From an uncultured bacterium (lineage in GTDB: Bacteria > Patescibacteriota > JACMRA01), in NCBI GenBank assembly GCA_963784355.1, contig CAWAQU010000006.1, positions 1 to 64,000 on the forward strand: a DNA stretch of 64,000 nt, written 5' to 3'. Position 1 is the stretch's first letter; every line of letters begins with the position of its first letter. Below, piece after piece: positions 8,163 to 57,495 of this stretch. The translations under genes were made by a program, and so were the position numbers. The notes under the pieces are model-generated. The model ran no database searches and was not told the DNA's origin. It saw only the letters and a list, made by a program, of their open reading frames with translations.

Positions 8163-9407
8163 ATGACTTCGTATCCTGCTTCAAAAATCAGAAATATCGC
8201 GATTATCGCTCACGTTGACCACGGAAAAACTACTTTAGTTGATGGTCTAATTCGCCAAGCCCTAAACATCAGAAATGTAGAGAGCATGGGTGACTTAATT
8301 ATGGATAGCATGGATCAGGAAAGAGAAAGAGGAATCACTATTAAGGCTAAAAATGCAAGTATTTACTATAGCTACCAAAATGAAGAATACAAAGTGAATA
8401 TTGTTGATACTCCTGGTCACGCTGATTTTGGAGGTGAAGTAGAGAGAACTCTTAGAATGGTAGATGGTGTAGCACTTTTGGTAGACGCTCAGGAAGGTCC
8501 AATGCCTCAGACAAAATTTGTTTTGAAAAAAGCAATTCAGTTAGGTTTGAAAATTATTGTAATTATTAACAAAGTTGATAAACCTGCGGCAAATGCAGCA
8601 AAAGCTTTGTCTAAAGTGGAAGATTTATTTTTAGATTTGGGTGCAAATGATGAGCAAATGGATTTTTCTGTAGTATACGCTAGTGGCGTGCAGGGTAAGG
8701 CAGGATCTGCTCCTGAAAAATTGGAAGATAATCTGTTTTACTTTTTGAATAAAGTTATTGAAGTTATTCCACAACCGGAAGTACTTGAAAATACCGGAGA
8801 AGTGGAAAACCCTTTACAAATTTTAGTTTTGGCTTTGCAGTATGACAATTTTAAAGGTAAGATGGGCGTAGGTAAAATCTCCAGCGGAAAAATCTTGAAA
8901 AATATGTCTATCCAGGCCATACAGGAAAATGGTAGCTTAAAAGGAAGAGTAGCTAGTTTGTTGGTATTTGATGGATTAGGATTAAAAGAAGTGGAAGAAG
9001 CCGGTGGAGGAGAAATTGTGATGGTTGCAGGGCTTGAAAACGTGGGTATCGGTGACACAATTAGTGCTGCAGAATACAATAAATCTTTACCTAGAGTAAA
9101 AGTAGATGAACCTACAATTCAAATGACTTTTGGAGTAAATACATCACCATTTTCCGGAAAAGAAGGTAAACTTGGTACATCCAGACAAATTCGCGAAAGA
9201 TTATATAAAGAATTAGAGACTAATGTAGCTTTAAAAGTGCAAGATCATCCTGAATCTTCTGAAAAATTCATCGTATCGGGTAGGGGAGAGCTCCACTTAG
9301 CTGTACTGATTGAAAGTATGCGCCGAGAGGGATTTGAATTGGAAGTATCTAGACCTGAAGTAATTCTCAAAACCAAGGAAGAAGTAGAGGCAATGATGAA
9401 ACCTTAG
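8163..9407 (+). CDS. typA: Translational GTPase TypA/BipA, N-terminal half (domains I-III)
   Basis: RNIAIIAHVDHGKTT, ERERGITI, DTPGHADFGGEVER, NKVD, SGRGELHL; ends just after SRPEVILK. Confidence 0.95.
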   Translation: MTSYPASKIRNIAIIAHVDHGKTTLVDGLIRQALNIRNVESMGDLIMDSMDQERERGITIKAKNASIYYSYQNEEYKVNIVDTPGHADFGGEVERTLRMVDGVALLVDAQEGPMPQTKFVLKKAIQLGLKIIVIINKVDKPAANAAKALSKVEDLFLDLGANDEQMDFSVVYASGVQGKAGSAPEKLEDNLFYFLNKVIEVIPQPEVLENTGEVENPLQILVLALQYDNFKGKMGVGKISSGKILKNMSIQAIQENGSLKGRVASLLVFDGLGLKEVEEAGGGEIVMVAGLENVGIGDTISAAEYNKSLPRVKVDEPTIQMTFGVNTSPFSGKEGKLGTSRQIRERLYKELETNVALKVQDHPESSEKFIVSGRGELHLAVLIESMRREGFELEVSRPEVILKTKEEVEAMMKP

Positions 9408-15649: not shown

Positions 15650-16294
15650 ATGTCGAATCAACCACTATACGAGCCATTTGAGTTCGTTGAAATAGATGTA
15701 CCTCAAGATTACCAGGGTGTAGTAATGCAAGAGCTCGGTAAAAGAAGTGCTGATATCCAAAATATTTCACCTAATGAGGCCGGAACCGAATTTCATTTTG
15801 AAGCTGTGATGCCTACAAGAGCTTTAATTGGGCTTAAATCATTGCTTATTACTGCAACAAAAGGTACTGTTATAATGCACAGTATTTTTGATGGGTACAG
15901 ACCAATGGTTAATTTACAGATTAGTAGTGACCATGGAAGTTTGGTAAGTACTGAAACTGGTGTAACTTCAGGTTATTCACTGGATAATGCTCAGCAAAGA
16001 GGAGTTTTGTTTGTAGGACCTGCCGTTGAAGTTTACGCAGGAATGGTAATTGGTGAGTGTAGTAAAGACGAAGATTTGGAGATAAATCCTTGTAGAGAAA
16101 AGAAGTTGAGCAACGTTCGTTCAAAATCCTCTGACGATGCTATCATGTTAGCTCCTCCTCGCGAAGTAACGCTAGATACCTGTCTTGAGTATATTGGAGA
16201 TGACGAATTGGTTGAAATTACCCCAAAAAGTCTTAGAATCAGAAAAAAATATTTAGATCCAAACGATAGAAAGAGGTTTAAACATAAAATGTAA
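15650..16294 (+). CDS. typA: TypA/BipA C-terminal half (domain V plus CTD)
   Basis: EPFEFVEIDVP, PTRALIG, VYAGMVIGE, KKLSNVRS, DDELVEITPKSLRIRKKYL. Confidence 0.95.
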   Translation: MSNQPLYEPFEFVEIDVPQDYQGVVMQELGKRSADIQNISPNEAGTEFHFEAVMPTRALIGLKSLLITATKGTVIMHSIFDGYRPMVNLQISSDHGSLVSTETGVTSGYSLDNAQQRGVLFVGPAVEVYAGMVIGECSKDEDLEINPCREKKLSNVRSKSSDDAIMLAPPREVTLDTCLEYIGDDELVEITPKSLRIRKKYLDPNDRKRFKHKM

Positions 16295-35937: not shown

Positions 35938-37954
35938 CTACTCCATCAATTTAAACTCTTCTGTTAATCTATCTACTTTGCTTTTTTTGCCGAATACTAA
36001 AACTCCTAAATAATTTAATTCAGTGGATTTTTTTGGTTCTTGTTTATCTCGAGCTTTTTCATCACTATTACTATCTCTCATTTCTTCAGTAAATACAGCT
36101 ATTTTTAAACCCTCTTTTTCAGCAGCTCTTTTTAGCTCCAACAATTGCTCTCTAGAATCTGTTTGTTTGATAATAATTGTATGTTGAATATTCATTGGAA
36201 TTTCCTCGCCATCCTGAGTCTCGAATCTATCTATACCTATAAGCCTATCTCCCTGCCTAGCTGCTAAAGAGGCAGCCAAATGAGCTGATGTAGCAAGTTT
36301 ACTCCAAGTTGGTATTTCAGGGGTGTTTAAAAGGATGCTGTGAGCTACTAAAGTCTTACCGGGTTTTTCAGAATCATTGTCGCGACTTCTTGTGTGAGGA
36401 AATGTAACACACTCTTTTATATGCTTACCAAGTAAAAATGAAACCAATCTTTCACTCATTCCAAAACCTGCAAGTGGCGGAAGTCCATATTCTAGAGCTT
36501 TTACATAATCTTCATTCATAAACTGTGCCTCATCGTCACCTGCATCTCTAGCGGCTTGCTGCGCTTTAAATCTATCCAACTGGTCAATCGGATCATTTAA
36601 CTCACTAAAACATTTGCCTAGTTCAGCGGTACCAGCTACAATTTGCCATCTGTGAACAAGCTTAGGATTTTCAGGATCTCGCTTAGCCAGTGGTTCTAAT
36701 TCCACAGGTTGCTCAGCCAAAAATATTGGATTTTGAATATAAATTCTAGCGACTTTTTTATAGATTTTATCAATTAAATTACTCATTGAAGTGCCTTTTT
36801 CAATTTCAATTTTGTTTTCATTGGCTATCTCAAGCAATTCTTTATAAGTTTTATTTTCCAAATCTACTTTGTCACCGGAAAAATATCTAATTGCTTCAAA
36901 ATATGGAATTACCGGCCAACCATTTACTAGTTTCCACCCATGTCTATCTGCTTCTTCCTGACTACACCAATTACCCCAATTTATACTTTTACCATTGTAA
37001 TCAATTTGTTCATAAGTACCTAAAAATTCTTGTACTATACGTCTATAAATTCTTTGAATTAATGGCATTCCGTCAAAATAGTTGGCATAGGCCCAATAAA
37101 ATTCGATTTGAGTATATTCCTGAAGATGTTGAGGACTGTTACCTTCATTTCTAAAAATTCTGCCAATTTCAAAAACTTTTTCAAACCCACCGGCAATCAA
37201 TTTTTTTAAAGGTAATTCTAACGATATGCGTAAATAGACTTCTTGATTTAATTCATTATAATAGGTTGTAAATGGTTTTGCATCTGCTCCCCCCGGAATT
37301 GTTTCAAAAATAGGGCATTCTACTTCCAAAAAACCTTCCTTAATCATTTCTTCGCGCCAAATCTGCCAGTATCTTGATTTAAGTTTAATTATATCACGGA
37401 CGGATAAGCCGTTTTCATCTTTGGTGTTCATTTTGAAATCTGCAACTTTATCCAAATACCTTGTCTCCACATTTTCATAATCTAATTGCTCAGGTAGGGG
37501 CCTAAGTGATTTAGTCAAAATTGTGTATTCCTCTACAAATAAACTAGGCTCGCCACGTTGAGAAAGGTCCAATTTGCCTGTTGCTTGAATATAGTCACCT
37601 TCATCAAATAAATCTTTATAATTTTCAAAACTTAACTTCTTTTCAGTATTATATTCTTGAGGTAAATCATCTTTTTTAAAAATGAATTGAAATCCCTCAG
37701 GTAGACTCTCATCCTCAATTGTGCCAAAAGCAATTTTACCGGACATTCTTTTAGATTTAACTCTTCCGGCCAATGTAACTTGCTGACCTTTGTTTTCCTC
37801 AAATTTTGATTTTATATCATATAAGGTATAATCTCTTTTTAGAGTAGGGGGTAAAAGGATTTTGACCTAGATCTTCTAGTTTATACATTTTCTCAATACG
37901 AATTTGGCGTTGAGTTTCGACGGATGAATATGAAATACCTGCTTGTTGAGACAT
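35938..37954 (-). CDS. lysS: Lysine--tRNA ligase (class II) with C-terminal DUF2000/PTH2-like domain; +1 frameshift between 37866 and 37820
   Basis: GGADAKPF, YLRISLEL, IGRIFRNEG, SELNDPIDQ, YGLPP; N-terminus MSQQ...RQIRIEK...GQNPF from ATG 37954 lies in a different frame. Confidence 0.93.
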
Positions 37955-37979
37955 ATTGGAATGATATAGTTACCTAATT

Positions 37980-38005
37980 AAAAAACAAACTCCCTGGAAG
38001 GGAGC
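37980..38005 (-). terminator. Attenuator terminator upstream of lysS
   Basis: Minus strand GCTCCCT-TCC-AGGGAGT-TTGTTTTTT, 26 nt before lysS ATG. Confidence 0.8.
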
Positions 38006-38032
38006 ATAAAAATAAATTAACCGAGCCCCCTT

Positions 38033-38083
38033 TTACTGAGAAGTTTTTTTAGAATTTTTCTTGGAGAAGACTACGAGTTTCAT
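38033..38083 (-). CDS. Putative lysS leader peptide MKLVVFSKKNSKKTSQ
   Basis: 16 aa with 5 Lys codons (two tandem pairs); ATG 7 nt after TATAAT; followed by alternative hairpins. Confidence 0.75.
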   Translation of the reverse strand: MKLVVFSKKNSKKTSQ

Positions 38084-38090
38084 GACTACA

Positions 38091-38120
38091 ATTATAGGAC
38101 GATTAAGATATAGCTGTCAA
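38091..38120 (-). promoter_or_regulatory. Consensus sigma70 promoter for leader-lysS
   Basis: TTGACA-N18-TATAAT on minus strand. Confidence 0.85.
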
Positions 38121-41720: not shown

Positions 41721-42371
41721 TTAAAAAAATACCCAAACACTTAAATATCCGGAAACAATTGGTAGCATTAAATTGTCCCAACCATCTCCAAACACAGCTT
41801 CAACACAAGTTAGAAATAAAGAACTAACTATACTTTTGCTAAATCTATCTCCAGTAATGCCCAGATTGTAGATAGGCAATAGAAATAGCATAAGTAAGAC
41901 TGTGACAGTAAAAAAAGTAATGCTACCTTCAATTGTTTTCTCTACTCCAATTTGAAATTTGATCTTTCCATAAAGTTTACCTACTACGGCAGCTAAAGCA
42001 TCAGAGAAACCTAAAATTAGACAACACATTTGGTAAACATATGGCTCAAAGTTCCAAAAAGTTATCGCTGCAATCATTAGTCCCAGGACGAAAAATTGTG
42101 GCGATTTTGTTTTCATGTAATATTCACCTTGAAATAACCAGACAAATAAACCTAATTGTTTTGAAATCGTAAGTATTAATATAAAAGCAAAACCGGAAAT
42201 GATAACTGTATTTATACTCATCCAGTAGGGTAGCAATAAAGCGATAATAGAACCTGCAATATGGGTTATATTTCTAGCAAAGTAATTCGGTGTATTTAGC
42301 CTATGAGCAATCTCACCCAAGGCCATAGATACACAAAATAAGGCTCCAATTATCACTGCGTGCAATATCAT
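41721..42371 (-). CDS. Dolichol/phytol kinase-like membrane protein (CTP-dependent polyprenol kinase family)
   Basis: RNITHI, DALAAVVG, KTIEGS, DNLMLP. Confidence 0.85.
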   Translation of the reverse strand: MILHAVIIGALFCVSMALGEIAHRLNTPNYFARNITHIAGSIIALLLPYWMSINTVIISGFAFILILTISKQLGLFVWLFQGEYYMKTKSPQFFVLGLMIAAITFWNFEPYVYQMCCLILGFSDALAAVVGKLYGKIKFQIGVEKTIEGSITFFTVTVLLMLFLLPIYNLGITGDRFSKSIVSSLFLTCVEAVFGDGWDNLMLPIVSGYLSVWVFF

Positions 42372-43528: not shown

Positions 43529-43603
43529 GTAAGCCTTATATCATATATGATATATTATTGTATTTTTGACATTAAAGGTACTAGCTGCAATTATATGATT
43601 ATA

Positions 43604-44506
43604 ATGAACTATTATATAGTTTTACCGAGTAAAAAGATACCGCAGCCCTATTTAACTTATAAGTATACTGAAGAGTTGGAAGTAGGTAGAATAATTGAAG
43701 TAAACGTTAGAAATGCTAGTGTGTGGGCTGTGGTACTAAAAAAAGTGGATGTAAGTAGCTTAAAATTTGATGAATCCAAAGTTAAAGAGATTGAAAATAA
43801 ATTACCTGTAATATTGGGGGAGCAAAATATAAAATTTTTATATGCCTTTAGTCAAAATACTTTTAACACATTAAATACAGTTTTAAATTCATTTTTACAA
43901 CCATTTAAATTATTAACAAAAAAGCAATGGTCTGAACTTAGTTCGAAACAAGTGGAATTGGCTCAAAATACCCCCCCGGCTTCTGGAAGTGGTTTCAATG
44001 TATTATTTGATCTAAATATATATACCACGTTACGTATAATATACATTATACGAAGTCATTTAAATACAACAAAAAAAAGAATACTACTAGTCTTCCCTGA
44101 AACAAAACACATCAATCGATTTTTAGATGAACTTACTAATCAACAAGATTTTACTGAAATAAAGAAAAAGCTCGACATTTTTATATATACAGGCTCTCCG
44201 GATAAAGAATCAAAGAAAACTGTGTGGAGTATTTTAAATCAAAATTCTAAGACTACTATTATACTTTCAACTCGCAGCGGACTCTTTCTACCATTTAATA
44301 AGTTGGATGAAATAATATTAGTTGATGAAGCAAATTCATTTCATATTCAAGACCAAAATCAGATTTATTTTGATACGCGTGACGTTATTTACCTAATGGC
44401 CCAGAGTTTTCAGTCCAAATTGACCTTCTTAAGTACCCTACCCTCAATTAGGCTCTATAATTTCTATCAGAGCGAAGTTTTTACTCAGTTTAAGGAAAAG
44501 TATTGA
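43604..44506 (+). CDS. priA: Primosomal protein N' (PriA), N-terminal part, degenerate helicase motifs
   Basis: LTYK...VGRIIEV 3'-binding domain; TRSGLFLPFNKLDEIILVDEA, DTRDV, STLPS; ATG 43604 preferred. Confidence 0.8.
   Translation: MNYYIVLPSKKIPQPYLTYKYTEELEVGRIIEVNVRNASVWAVVLKKVDVSSLKFDESKVKEIENKLPVILGEQNIKFLYAFSQNTFNTLNTVLNSFLQPFKLLTKKQWSELSSKQVELAQNTPPASGSGFNVLFDLNIYTTLRIIYIIRSHLNTTKKRILLVFPETKHINRFLDELTNQQDFTEIKKKLDIFIYTGSPDKESKKTVWSILNQNSKTTIILSTRSGLFLPFNKLDEIILVDEANSFHIQDQNQIYFDTRDVIYLMAQSFQSKLTFLSTLPSIRLYNFYQSEVFTQFKEKY
44029..44056. other. Putative chromosome dimer resolution site (dif), 11-6-11 bp, inside priA
   Basis: GTTACGTATAA-TATACA-TTATACGAAGT; spacer equals the E. coli dif core TGTATA on the minus strand; lies at the KOPS polarity switch. 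Confidence 0.8.
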
Positions 44507-45546
44507 TGTCTCAAAAAAAAGCTTTATTTATACATTGTAGACGTGGACTTTATCAGCTAACCAAATGCAAAAGTTGTGGTCATAGTTTTTCTTGTGATAA
44601 TTGTGATGCTAAACTGGTTACTTATAAAACAGGTGGTAGCAGTCTTGAACTTCTGTGTCACCAGTGCCAAACTTATTATAAGTATCCAAATCATTGTCCT
44701 AAGTGTAACTCAAAGGAAATATTTTCTAAATATGGTGGTATTGAAGAATTAGCGCAGTTATTGGAAAAAGAAGATTATAAACTTATTAGACTTGATCAAT
44801 CAAAAAACTTCCCTACAAATCATGCAAATGAAATAGAATCAAATATTGAGGGTAAAAATATACAAATTTCTTTTAGACAAAATAAAAATGACCTAGTAAG
44901 CCCACATTTAACCAGTAATTTAGAAGAATATGATATTTACCTACATACAAGAATATTTGACCCGCTTTTACCCTACTCTATTTTTGATAAAATAGTATTT
45001 GTACAAGCTGAGAATTTACTTGCTAGCCCTGATTATCTAGTAAGCGAAGAAATAATCAAAGCAACTGCTGAAATTTTACTTCAATGCAATACAACTAATG
45101 AAATCATATTTGATACAAATGCCCCTGAATTGGAATTATTTGAAGAGTTAAAAAAACTCCACTACGAGTATCCTGAAAATCACAAGGTCTATGAGTGGTA
45201 TTTAGAATTTTTGGAAAAAGAGAAATCAAACAGGCAAAAATACGGTTTTCCACCATTCAAGAATTTACTTTTGATTACTACTCAGGAAAAAGATATTCAA
45301 AGCTCCAATAAAAAACTAGAAACAATTACTAATTATCTGGATAAGATGAGAGGTGAGTTACCTGAAGTAAGTTGGTCTACCCCCTACCCTGCGAGGTTTT
45401 TAAAACGAAAAAATATGTATTCACATCACATTTTGCTACGTTTCCCGCGCCAATATGAACATTTCAATCTTTTAAGAAAGGAAATCGGAGAAATTGTAGA
45501 GTTATATAGAGTACAAGTAAGGCTTAACCCCAGACATTTGTTTTAG
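44506..45546 (+). CDS. priA: PriA C-terminal part (Zn-binding Cys-rich region plus CTD)
   Basis: RRG..CKSCG..CDNC..CHQC..CPKC, GGIEE, RQKYGFPPF; TGATG overlap with upstream part. Confidence 0.85.
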   Translation: MSQKKALFIHCRRGLYQLTKCKSCGHSFSCDNCDAKLVTYKTGGSSLELLCHQCQTYYKYPNHCPKCNSKEIFSKYGGIEELAQLLEKEDYKLIRLDQSKNFPTNHANEIESNIEGKNIQISFRQNKNDLVSPHLTSNLEEYDIYLHTRIFDPLLPYSIFDKIVFVQAENLLASPDYLVSEEIIKATAEILLQCNTTNEIIFDTNAPELELFEELKKLHYEYPENHKVYEWYLEFLEKEKSNRQKYGFPPFKNLLLITTQEKDIQSSNKKLETITNYLDKMRGELPEVSWSTPYPARFLKRKNMYSHHILLRFPRQYEHFNLLRKEIGEIVELYRVQVRLNPRHLF

Positions 45547-56286: not shown

Positions 56287-57495
56287 TTAGAAAGCGTATG
56301 TAGAATAACCATCGTATGTTCTAACTACACCATTAGGATCGTTAGCTCTAGGTCCTCCAATATCAGGATTTTCCCAGTCTAAGAAGTTGAATGAAATTAT
56401 CTTGTAATCTCCATCATTAGCTCCTAAACTACACTCTACAGGGTTACCGTTACGTACCATCTTACTTCCGTTTCTCTCATATAAATCACCTACTCTTACA
56501 CCATTTACTGTTGCTCTATAAACACAAGCTGTAGATCTATATCCATCATCCCAAGAAGCGTAAAAAGTATGAGTATGAATAAACATGTTTGTGTTTGCAT
56601 TGTTGTTTCCTGCTAATTGTCCACCATATTTAGTTCTAAAGAAACTCATACACTGATCAACGTTACTGTCATTAAATCCAAACCAAGTCTTACATTCATC
56701 TCTTGTAGGGTATTTGATTACATAAATATATTGAAATGCATGAATACTTCTTTCTTCAACAGTAGCGTTGTTTTGGAATTTACATTCTTTAGAAGGGTTG
56801 TTTACATCAATACCATAATCGCTAGGTTTGTAGGTGTCTAACCCATTAAGGCTAGATCTTACAGAAATTTGTCCATTTTGGATATCACAGTTACCACCTA
56901 AGTAAGTATATTTGTTATTTCCTAAATCAATCAATTTATCTACACCTGTACTGAACCATCTAGGTACTCCCTGCCCTTGTAGACAGTTGCTACCATAACT
57001 TGGGTAAATTCTACATTTGTACTCATCAGTAAAGATCTTATCAAGCTTTACATTTTCTGCTCTATTTACTGAAGCAACTGCTTGTTTTACACTTGCATCT
57101 TCATTATAAGTACTTACATTTTGATTGGTTACACCCATTAAAGGTAAGTTTAGACTACAAAAGTCTTGCTTTGTATTACCTGTATTGGTATAAATTGTAT
57201 CAAAATTACAATAGTTATTTTTTTGTGCAGCCCCATTTACAAAAAGTTTGTCTTGGCTTACACATCCTTTTTTATCATATGGTTTGGTATTTGAGTTACC
57301 GGCAGCTAAGTCTGCAACTTTTTGTCCAAAATTAAAAACTTCCATACAAGCAATCATGCTCATTGAAAAATCTTGTGATTGAGAGGGGATTGTAGTAGCC
57401 GCATAACTTGGAATACTAAAACCCAAGAGACTAACAAAAGCCAAAGCTAAAGTTATATTTCTTAATTGTTTTTTTGCAAATTTATATATAGTCAT
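56287..57495 (-). CDS. Secreted Cys-rich hypothetical protein
   Basis: Signal peptide ending SYAA; 12 Cys; Asn/Tyr-rich. Confidence 0.8.
   Translation of the reverse strand: MTIYKFAKKQLRNITLALAFVSLLGFSIPSYAATTIPSQSQDFSMSMIACMEVFNFGQKVADLAAGNSNTKPYDKKGCVSQDKLFVNGAAQKNNYCNFDTIYTNTGNTKQDFCSLNLPLMGVTNQNVSTYNEDASVKQAVASVNRAENVKLDKIFTDEYKCRIYPSYGSNCLQGQGVPRWFSTGVDKLIDLGNNKYTYLGGNCDIQNGQISVRSSLNGLDTYKPSDYGIDVNNPSKECKFQNNATVEERSIHAFQYIYVIKYPTRDECKTWFGFNDSNVDQCMSFFRTKYGGQLAGNNNANTNMFIHTHTFYASWDDGYRSTACVYRATVNGVRVGDLYERNGSKMVRNGNPVECSLGANDGDYKIISFNFLDWENPDIGGPRANDPNGVVRTYDGYSTYAF

Follow-up and report, generated by a model that had tools for sequence, protein, structure and literature searches.

A candidate leader-peptide attenuator with clustered lysine codons upstream of a lysyl-tRNA synthetase gene in an uncultured Patescibacteria genome

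In Escherichia coli K-12, the aminoacyl-tRNA synthetase genes pheST are controlled through pheM, a leader peptide of 14 residues, 5 of which are Phe; a purine-rich segment just past its stop codon (GGAGGCU) is complementary to the C-rich 5' arm of a 10-bp intrinsic terminator. Candidate classical attenuators have been proposed for leuS and trpS in Streptomyces, with pheST being of the same kind (PMC1262725), and for the hisS paralogues of bacilli (PMC2965389). As far as the available parts of these two reports go, the proposed regions combine a leader peptide, an antiterminator and a terminator before a synthetase gene, the predictions rest on cross-genome conservation, and none of the cases concerns lysS or Patescibacteria. 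In mycobacteria, leaderless polycysteine short ORFs have been described in which ribosome stalling remodels the downstream RNA; in the portion of that report available to us, the output is translational, through occlusion or release of a downstream ribosome-binding site (10.1101/834739). T-boxes and L-box riboswitches are also terminator/antiterminator switches, answering tRNA charging or lysine, and T-boxes precede many synthetase genes. The Bacillus cereus group has a T-box for lysK. The literature searched, largely without subscription journals, revealed neither a leader-peptide attenuator of lysS or one tuned to lysine nor attenuator papers on the Candidate Phyla Radiation (CPR).

We analyzed a stretch of 64,000 nucleotides from an uncultured bacterium, hereafter the window, in which a first-pass annotation had proposed a lysine-sensing attenuator upstream of lysS. 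Its suggestion that such an element was not yet described holds for lysS and lysine within the literature searched, but not for the class of mechanism, which is well known for other synthetase genes. When the minus strand is read, all the elements named in that annotation (promoter, ATG after 7 nt, ORF with five Lys codons, G-run, and hairpin followed by a U-tract) are present in the right order:

38091..38120, minus strand: sigma-70-type promoter TTGACA-N18-TATAAT, the sole 12/12 match in the window
38120-38115, minus strand: -35 box TTGACA, with an 18-nt spacer to the -10 box
38096-38091, minus strand: -10 box TATAAT, followed by 7 nt (38090-38084) and then by ATG at 38083
38033..38083, minus strand: putative leaderless leader ORF MKLVVFSKKNSKKTSQ, 16 codons plus TAA, read from the sequence, with Lys codons K2 AAA, K8 AAG, K9 AAA, K12 AAA and K13 AAA
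38062-38057 and 38050-38045, minus strand: the Lys pairs K8 K9 and K12 K13 of the leader ORF
38035-38033, minus strand: stop codon TAA of the leader ORF
38064..38079, minus strand: segment 1, leader ORF codons 2-7, which can pair with segment 2 (G-run region)
38025..38032, minus strand: segment 2, the G-run AAGGGGGC, antiterminator 5' arm, abutting the leader ORF stop
38036-38019, minus strand: extended pairing region of segment 2
37998..38005, minus strand: segment 3, GCTCCCTT, serving as antiterminator 3' arm and terminator 5' arm
37980..37995, minus strand: segment 4, AGGGAGT (terminator 3' arm) and U-tract TTGTTTTTT, a terminator-like site
38005-37980, minus strand: terminator hairpin, composed of GCTCCCT (38005-37999), loop TCC, AGGGAGT (37995-37989) and the U-tract (37988-37980)
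35938..37954, minus strand: lysS, encoding a class II LysRS with a C-terminal DUF2000 (Pfam), the putative regulated gene

The leader spans about 100 nt and the whole element about 170 nt, in a window with a G+C content of 31-36%. The terminator stem is modest, with 7 pairs including one G-U, and the distance from the U-tract to the lysS ATG at 37954 is 25 nt, one less than the 26 nt given previously. By eye, TATATC located 8 nt before the lysS ATG was considered as a promoter and rejected, as its last base is not the invariant T and a -35 box is missing.

The arrangement shares several characteristics with pheM-pheST, i.e. a short leader ORF in which codons for the cognate amino acid are frequent (here 5 of 16 for Lys, there 5 of 14 for Phe), a last regulatory codon 2-3 codons before the stop, and, just past the stop, a purine-rich anti-arm complementary to the C-rich 5' arm of the intrinsic terminator; the gene under control, in our case predicted, encodes an aminoacyl-tRNA synthetase. 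In contrast to pheM, where a strong 1:2 pairing accompanies the 10-bp terminator, the lysS leader has a weak 1:2 pairing and a 7-bp terminator, its ORF begins at the predicted 5' end of the transcript, both the amino acid and the phylum differ, and the two leaders show no similarity in sequence. With the Streptomyces and bacilli cases the lysS leader shares the general layout, but its prediction does not rest on cross-genome conservation. With the mycobacterial ORFs, as far as the available part of that report describes them, it shares a leaderless sensory short ORF carrying consecutive codons for the sensed amino acid, while the predicted target of the switch is an intrinsic terminator instead of a ribosome-binding site. 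For either a T-box or an L-box, the lysS leader is far too short. The lysS leader would probably join the well-known attenuator class, with its presumed leaderless start as a variation.

With moderate confidence, we interpret the lysS leader as a ribosome-mediated leader-peptide transcription attenuator that tunes lysS expression to the supply of charged tRNA-Lys. Transcription would start on the A of the leader ORF ATG or on a neighboring base, and the ORF would be translated as a leaderless message. When Lys-tRNA is plentiful, the ribosome would reach the UAA codon and its footprint would cover the adjoining G-run, leaving the C-rich segment 3 free to pair with segment 4, and the resulting hairpin with its U-tract would end the transcript about 25 nt before lysS. 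When Lys-tRNA is scarce, the ribosome would stall with K12 or K13 (or K8/K9) in the A site, and the exposed G-run would pair with segment 3 before segment 4 is made, such that no terminator forms and RNA polymerase enters lysS.

A leaderless start fits the habits of the organism, considering that the genome is poor in Shine-Dalgarno (SD) sequences and carries -10 hexamers near its start codons. Only 1 of the 47 genes inspected has an SD-like 4-mer (any of four, at positions -20 to -4), and lysS itself has none. A -10-like hexamer ending 5-9 nt before the start codon was found for 9/47 genes, compared to 3-6 at four control offsets, and the gene at 41721-42371 repeats the arrangement TATAAT, 7 nt, ATG. 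These counts suggest that leaderless or very short-leader mRNAs may be frequent in this genome, and they make the leaderless start proposed in the first-pass annotation plausible, with the start itself placed by inference. In the literature searched, no paper on leaderless or SD usage in Patescibacteria was found.

The 8-bp pairing between the G-run and the 5' arm of the terminator, claimed in the first-pass annotation, was reproduced at all eight positions. Folding of both conformers, which the annotation had recommended, yielded -11.7 kcal/mol for the antiterminator 2:3 (AAGGGGGC:GCUCCCUU, 8 contiguous pairs) and -9.8 kcal/mol for the terminator hairpin 3:4; as both use segment 3, the two pairings are mutually exclusive. 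When the naked transcript is folded as far as the U-tract, the minimum free energy structure contains 1:2 and 3:4 together (-19.6 kcal/mol), with 1:2 (leader ORF nt 4-19 with the G-run region) being weak. This four-segment arrangement resembles the textbook trp attenuator. The naked transcript that ends before segment 4, on the other hand, prefers the antiterminator 2:3. Because the naked leader already favors the antiterminator, the default of trp- and pheM-type systems, in which no translation means termination, is not clearly present. The folds suggest that termination here would depend on the arrival of a ribosome at the stop codon, a strong 1:2 'protector' being absent. For the full 130-nt leader, the preferred fold is a long hairpin with an additional pairing of ACUUCUC (codons 14-16) to GGGAGUU. 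This pairing and that of leader ORF nt 4-19 with the G-run region had been overlooked in the first-pass annotation.

The influence of a translating ribosome was modeled by masking a footprint composed of the A-site codon and 9 or 12 nt downstream. On the transcript extending to the U-tract, a mask at K12 or K13 left the antiterminator only, and a mask at the stop codon left the terminator only. With the mask at K8/K9, a long hairpin (ACUUCUC:GGGAGUU) stacked on the antiterminator was obtained at -17.5 kcal/mol, abutting the U-tract; in this model, a stall at K8/K9 might still lead to termination. As a positive control, we used the annotated pheM-pheS region of E. coli K-12. On the full-length pheM transcript the terminator formed with every mask and antitermination was not reproduced. 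Since full-length masking is uninformative on pheM, we rely on transcripts cut before the 3' arm of the terminator, which represent the kinetically relevant moment and are the sole form in which pheM validates the procedure. In this form, 7/10 arm nucleotides of pheM were sequestered for stalls at F9-F12, compared to 1-3/10 at the stop codon and 1/10 in the naked transcript. The lysS leader behaved in the same manner: all 7 arm nucleotides were paired with the ribosome at any position from K8 to K13, and 0/7 with the ribosome at the stop. In silico, these values bear out both halves of the earlier proposal, namely that a ribosome at the stop masks the G-run and that a stall on the Lys codons frees it.

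The same pattern could be produced by a translation-coupled attenuator that is not specific to lysine and senses general translation capacity, responding whenever the leading ribosome slows down. The structural evidence is identical for such a sensor, as any stall within codons 8-13 gives the same masking outcome. We nevertheless consider a general sensor distinctly unlikely, because the ORF is specifically Lys-rich and the controlled gene is lysS. Lys accounts for 5 of the 16 codons of the leader ORF, compared to 8.0% of the 9702 codons in 18 long ORFs; among the 534 ATG-initiated ORFs of 10-30 codons within the window, at least five Lys codons occur in 17, a Lys content of at least 31% in 4, and two Lys-Lys pairs in 8. 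Even less probable, to the point of being remote, is a mechanism in which the ORF is irrelevant and a trans-acting factor (LysRS, another RNA-binding protein or uncharged tRNA-Lys) picks the hairpin. Alternative hairpins do exist in the lysS leader, and synthetase genes offer precedents in the T-boxes and in the autoregulation of E. coli thrS, as described in the available parts of two reports (PMC2965389, PMC1262725). Against such a factor, the leader is merely ~100 nt long and the geometry of stop codon and G-run is what a ribosome-operated switch needs. In addition, neither a T-box nor an L-box is among the 6 Rfam matches of the lysS leader at E up to 10, and no other family is meaningful at that level; the best leader family in the scan of the region is Phe_leader with 17.4 bits against a cut-off of 55 (E = 5.7), a match lying mostly on the terminator. 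The scan of the whole window against Rfam returned one tRNA and nothing else.

Two further explanations dispense with regulation by the leader ORF altogether. The promoter and terminator may delimit an independent small transcript, either a small-protein gene or an sRNA, with lysS being reached by constitutive leakage through the terminator and lysine not being sensed; we regard this explanation as unlikely. It agrees with the perfect promoter and the gene-end type of terminator that bound a ~100-nt unit, with the lack of that unit in 24/24 relatives, as expected of a lineage-specific small gene, and with reports, available in part, that attenuator-derived RNAs and leader peptides can act in trans as well (PMC6614838, PMC7298713). 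A strict terminator definition yields 7 sites in the window, including the lysS-leader hairpin. Five of the other six directly follow 3' ends (typA-C, a hypothetical gene, the gene at 56287-57495, groEL and tRNA-Cys), implying that this genome ends its transcripts with hairpins of exactly this style; of the 7, the lysS-leader hairpin alone has no preceding gene on its strand. The 47 nt upstream of it form 8 contiguous pairs that engage 8 arm nucleotides at -11.3 kcal/mol, compared to 2-5 contiguous pairs and 0-5 paired arm nucleotides for the other six. A small transcript leaves this complement to 8/8 arm nucleotides, unique among the seven terminators and located exactly past the stop, unexplained, as it does the enrichment of Lys before lysS in particular. 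Furthermore, a separate lysS promoter downstream of the terminator, the presence of which would have spoken against attenuation according to the first-pass annotation, was not found: between the terminator (37980) and lysS (37954) there is no promoter-like site scoring at least 9/12. Without a promoter past the terminator, lysS must be transcribed through the hairpin, which argues for conditional or leaky termination. The remaining explanation, that promoter-like, ORF and hairpin sequences have come together by chance in intergenic DNA that is AT-rich, we regard as very unlikely. It draws on the absence of conservation, on the ordinary stability of the whole leader (z = -0.65, with 52/200 shuffles folding equally well or better) and on overall numbers of promoter-like sites (72 vs 70.0 in shuffles) and terminator-like sites (6 vs 7.7) that show no enrichment. 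The specific combination, however, is rare. A perfect TTGACA-N18-TATAAT occurs once in the 64-kb window, where 0.10 are expected and at least one was seen in 9/100 shuffles, and a 16-kb scan likewise identified the leader promoter as the sole 12/12 site. A contiguous 8-bp complement to the 5' arm of the terminator, with G-U pairs allowed, was present in 47 of 20000 random 30-nt genomic windows. Defining the module as a terminator, an anti-arm no shorter than 7 bp located within 60 nt and an ORF stop no more than 15 nt from the anti-arm, we counted 14 modules in total in 186 first-order Markov windows (mean of 5.9 strict terminators each), none of them Lys-rich, as opposed to one module, Lys-rich, in the real window; these chance estimates leave out of account the position of the module directly before lysS, one of ~50 genes.

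Relatives were collected as 27 loci from a contig search, of which 24 could be anchored at the lysS start and examined over 300 nt upstream; L010 and L027 were left out for unresolved N-termini and L026 for having no upstream DNA. The closest loci in the genome collection belong to Patescibacteria/CPR metagenome-assembled genomes labeled Gracilibacteria, Peregrinibacteria, Peribacteria and Saccharibacteria, with 39-65% LysRS identity, and the best non-self LysRS in a large protein collection has 72% identity, with the closest homologues there lying at 69-72%. A Lys-rich uORF together with a terminator upstream of lysS was found in 0/24 relatives, all with no more than 65% LysRS identity. Formally, the conservation that the first-pass annotation had proposed to look for is thus absent, at a large evolutionary distance. 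Seven loci carry some uORF with at least 3 Lys and no terminator (the uORF of L007 reads as antisense to the upstream gene), and the 11 closest loci have promoter-like TTGACA boxes ~30-70 nt from the lysS start. Searched against Rfam at the gathering threshold, the 27 loci contain tRNAs only, with no T-box or L-box. As far as can be seen from these loci, the lysS-leader element appears to be lineage-specific. One distant Patescibacteria lysS (L023, 40% identity) is preceded by a GC-rich hairpin with a T-run (L023 122-150, 53-72 nt upstream), with neither a Lys-rich uORF nor an Rfam match; it may be the terminator of the upstream gene or another kind of leader.

The putative target gene encodes an anticodon-binding OB domain, the tRNA-synt_2 core and the C-terminal DUF2000, as identified by Pfam. 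The DUF2000 portion lies at 35938-36320 on the minus strand (Pfam E = 2.5e-20); fusion of LysRS to DUF2000 is found in most of the best 120 homologues, some of which add the AlaRS-type PF01411 and PF07973. Overlooked in the first-pass annotation was a frameshift in lysS, caused by one extra A in an A5 run (37840-37836, minus strand). Frame A, starting from the ATG at 37954, contributes 45 residues, which match intact homologues at their N-termini in an alignment, and frame B (+1) contributes the remaining 633 residues; the source's own gene call is a truncated form of 611 aa. Homologues read ...S-(K/Q/H)-R-D... at the junction, which four A's would restore, and all 24 anchored relatives are open across the site. 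The frameshift is likely to be an assembly error or a recent mutation, so that the putative target may be a broken gene or its sequence may be imperfect. When the window was checked for homopolymer errors, only priA was also found to be split, and not clearly at a run.

The shift site, UCU-AAA-AAG (37843-37835, minus strand), is itself a Lys-Lys pair. Starvation-induced frameshifting at 'hungry' codons is established in E. coli, as stated in the part of the report available (PMC5009743). Synthesis of LysRS could in principle be under two controls that both answer a shortage of what the enzyme makes, the leaderless Lys attenuator and an obligatory +1 frameshift at this site, a scenario to which we give very little credence. 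With the rarer Lys codon AAG awaiting Lys-tRNA, the P-site tRNA-Lys on AAA would shift its pairing downstream by one base, and decoding would resume at AGA-GAU to yield the conserved ...S-K-R-D-Y... sequence. If this were true, lysS would be autoregulated by frameshifting in the manner of RF2, with a 'hungry' Lys codon as the trigger.

Other genes of the window are divided as well. The typA/bipA gene is found in two pieces on the plus strand, at 8163-9407 and 15650-16294, whose clean junction falls at the domain III/V boundary; ~6.2 kb lie between the two, with seven genes (an ABC transporter ATPase, an FtsX permease, a ferritin/Dps-like protein, DUF4230, VTT/DedA and two unknowns), and flanking repeats were not found. 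The priA gene consists of two overlapping plus-strand ORFs in different frames, 43547-44506 and 44503-45546, joined at TGATG and matching PriA residues ~292-384 and 438-514 of solved structures; a search of longer proteins with a limit of E = 1e-20 gave no fused PriA homologue, a negative that is weak as evidence. Stop codons in 50 ORFs comprise 37 TAA, 12 TAG and a single TGA, the one that ends the first priA piece, and the TGA trinucleotide is as common as TAG (2329 vs 2299). Some homologues are labeled SR1, a lineage that reassigns TGA. Considering the near-absence of TGA stops together with the SR1-labeled homologues, TGA may be close to unassigned in this genome. The use of TGA as a sense codon was considered as an explanation for the split genes and rejected, since the frames past the TGA stop again or are non-homologous.

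If the attenuator reading of the lysS leader is correct, no leader-peptide attenuator of a lysyl-tRNA synthetase gene, or indeed for lysine, would precede it within the literature searched, and it would be an example of ribosome-operated transcription control in Patescibacteria/CPR. It would also mean that the classical mechanism can operate from a start that is leaderless and free of an SD sequence. Patescibacteria/CPR are thought to depend on outside amino acids; were the element real, such organisms would monitor the charging of tRNA-Lys directly.
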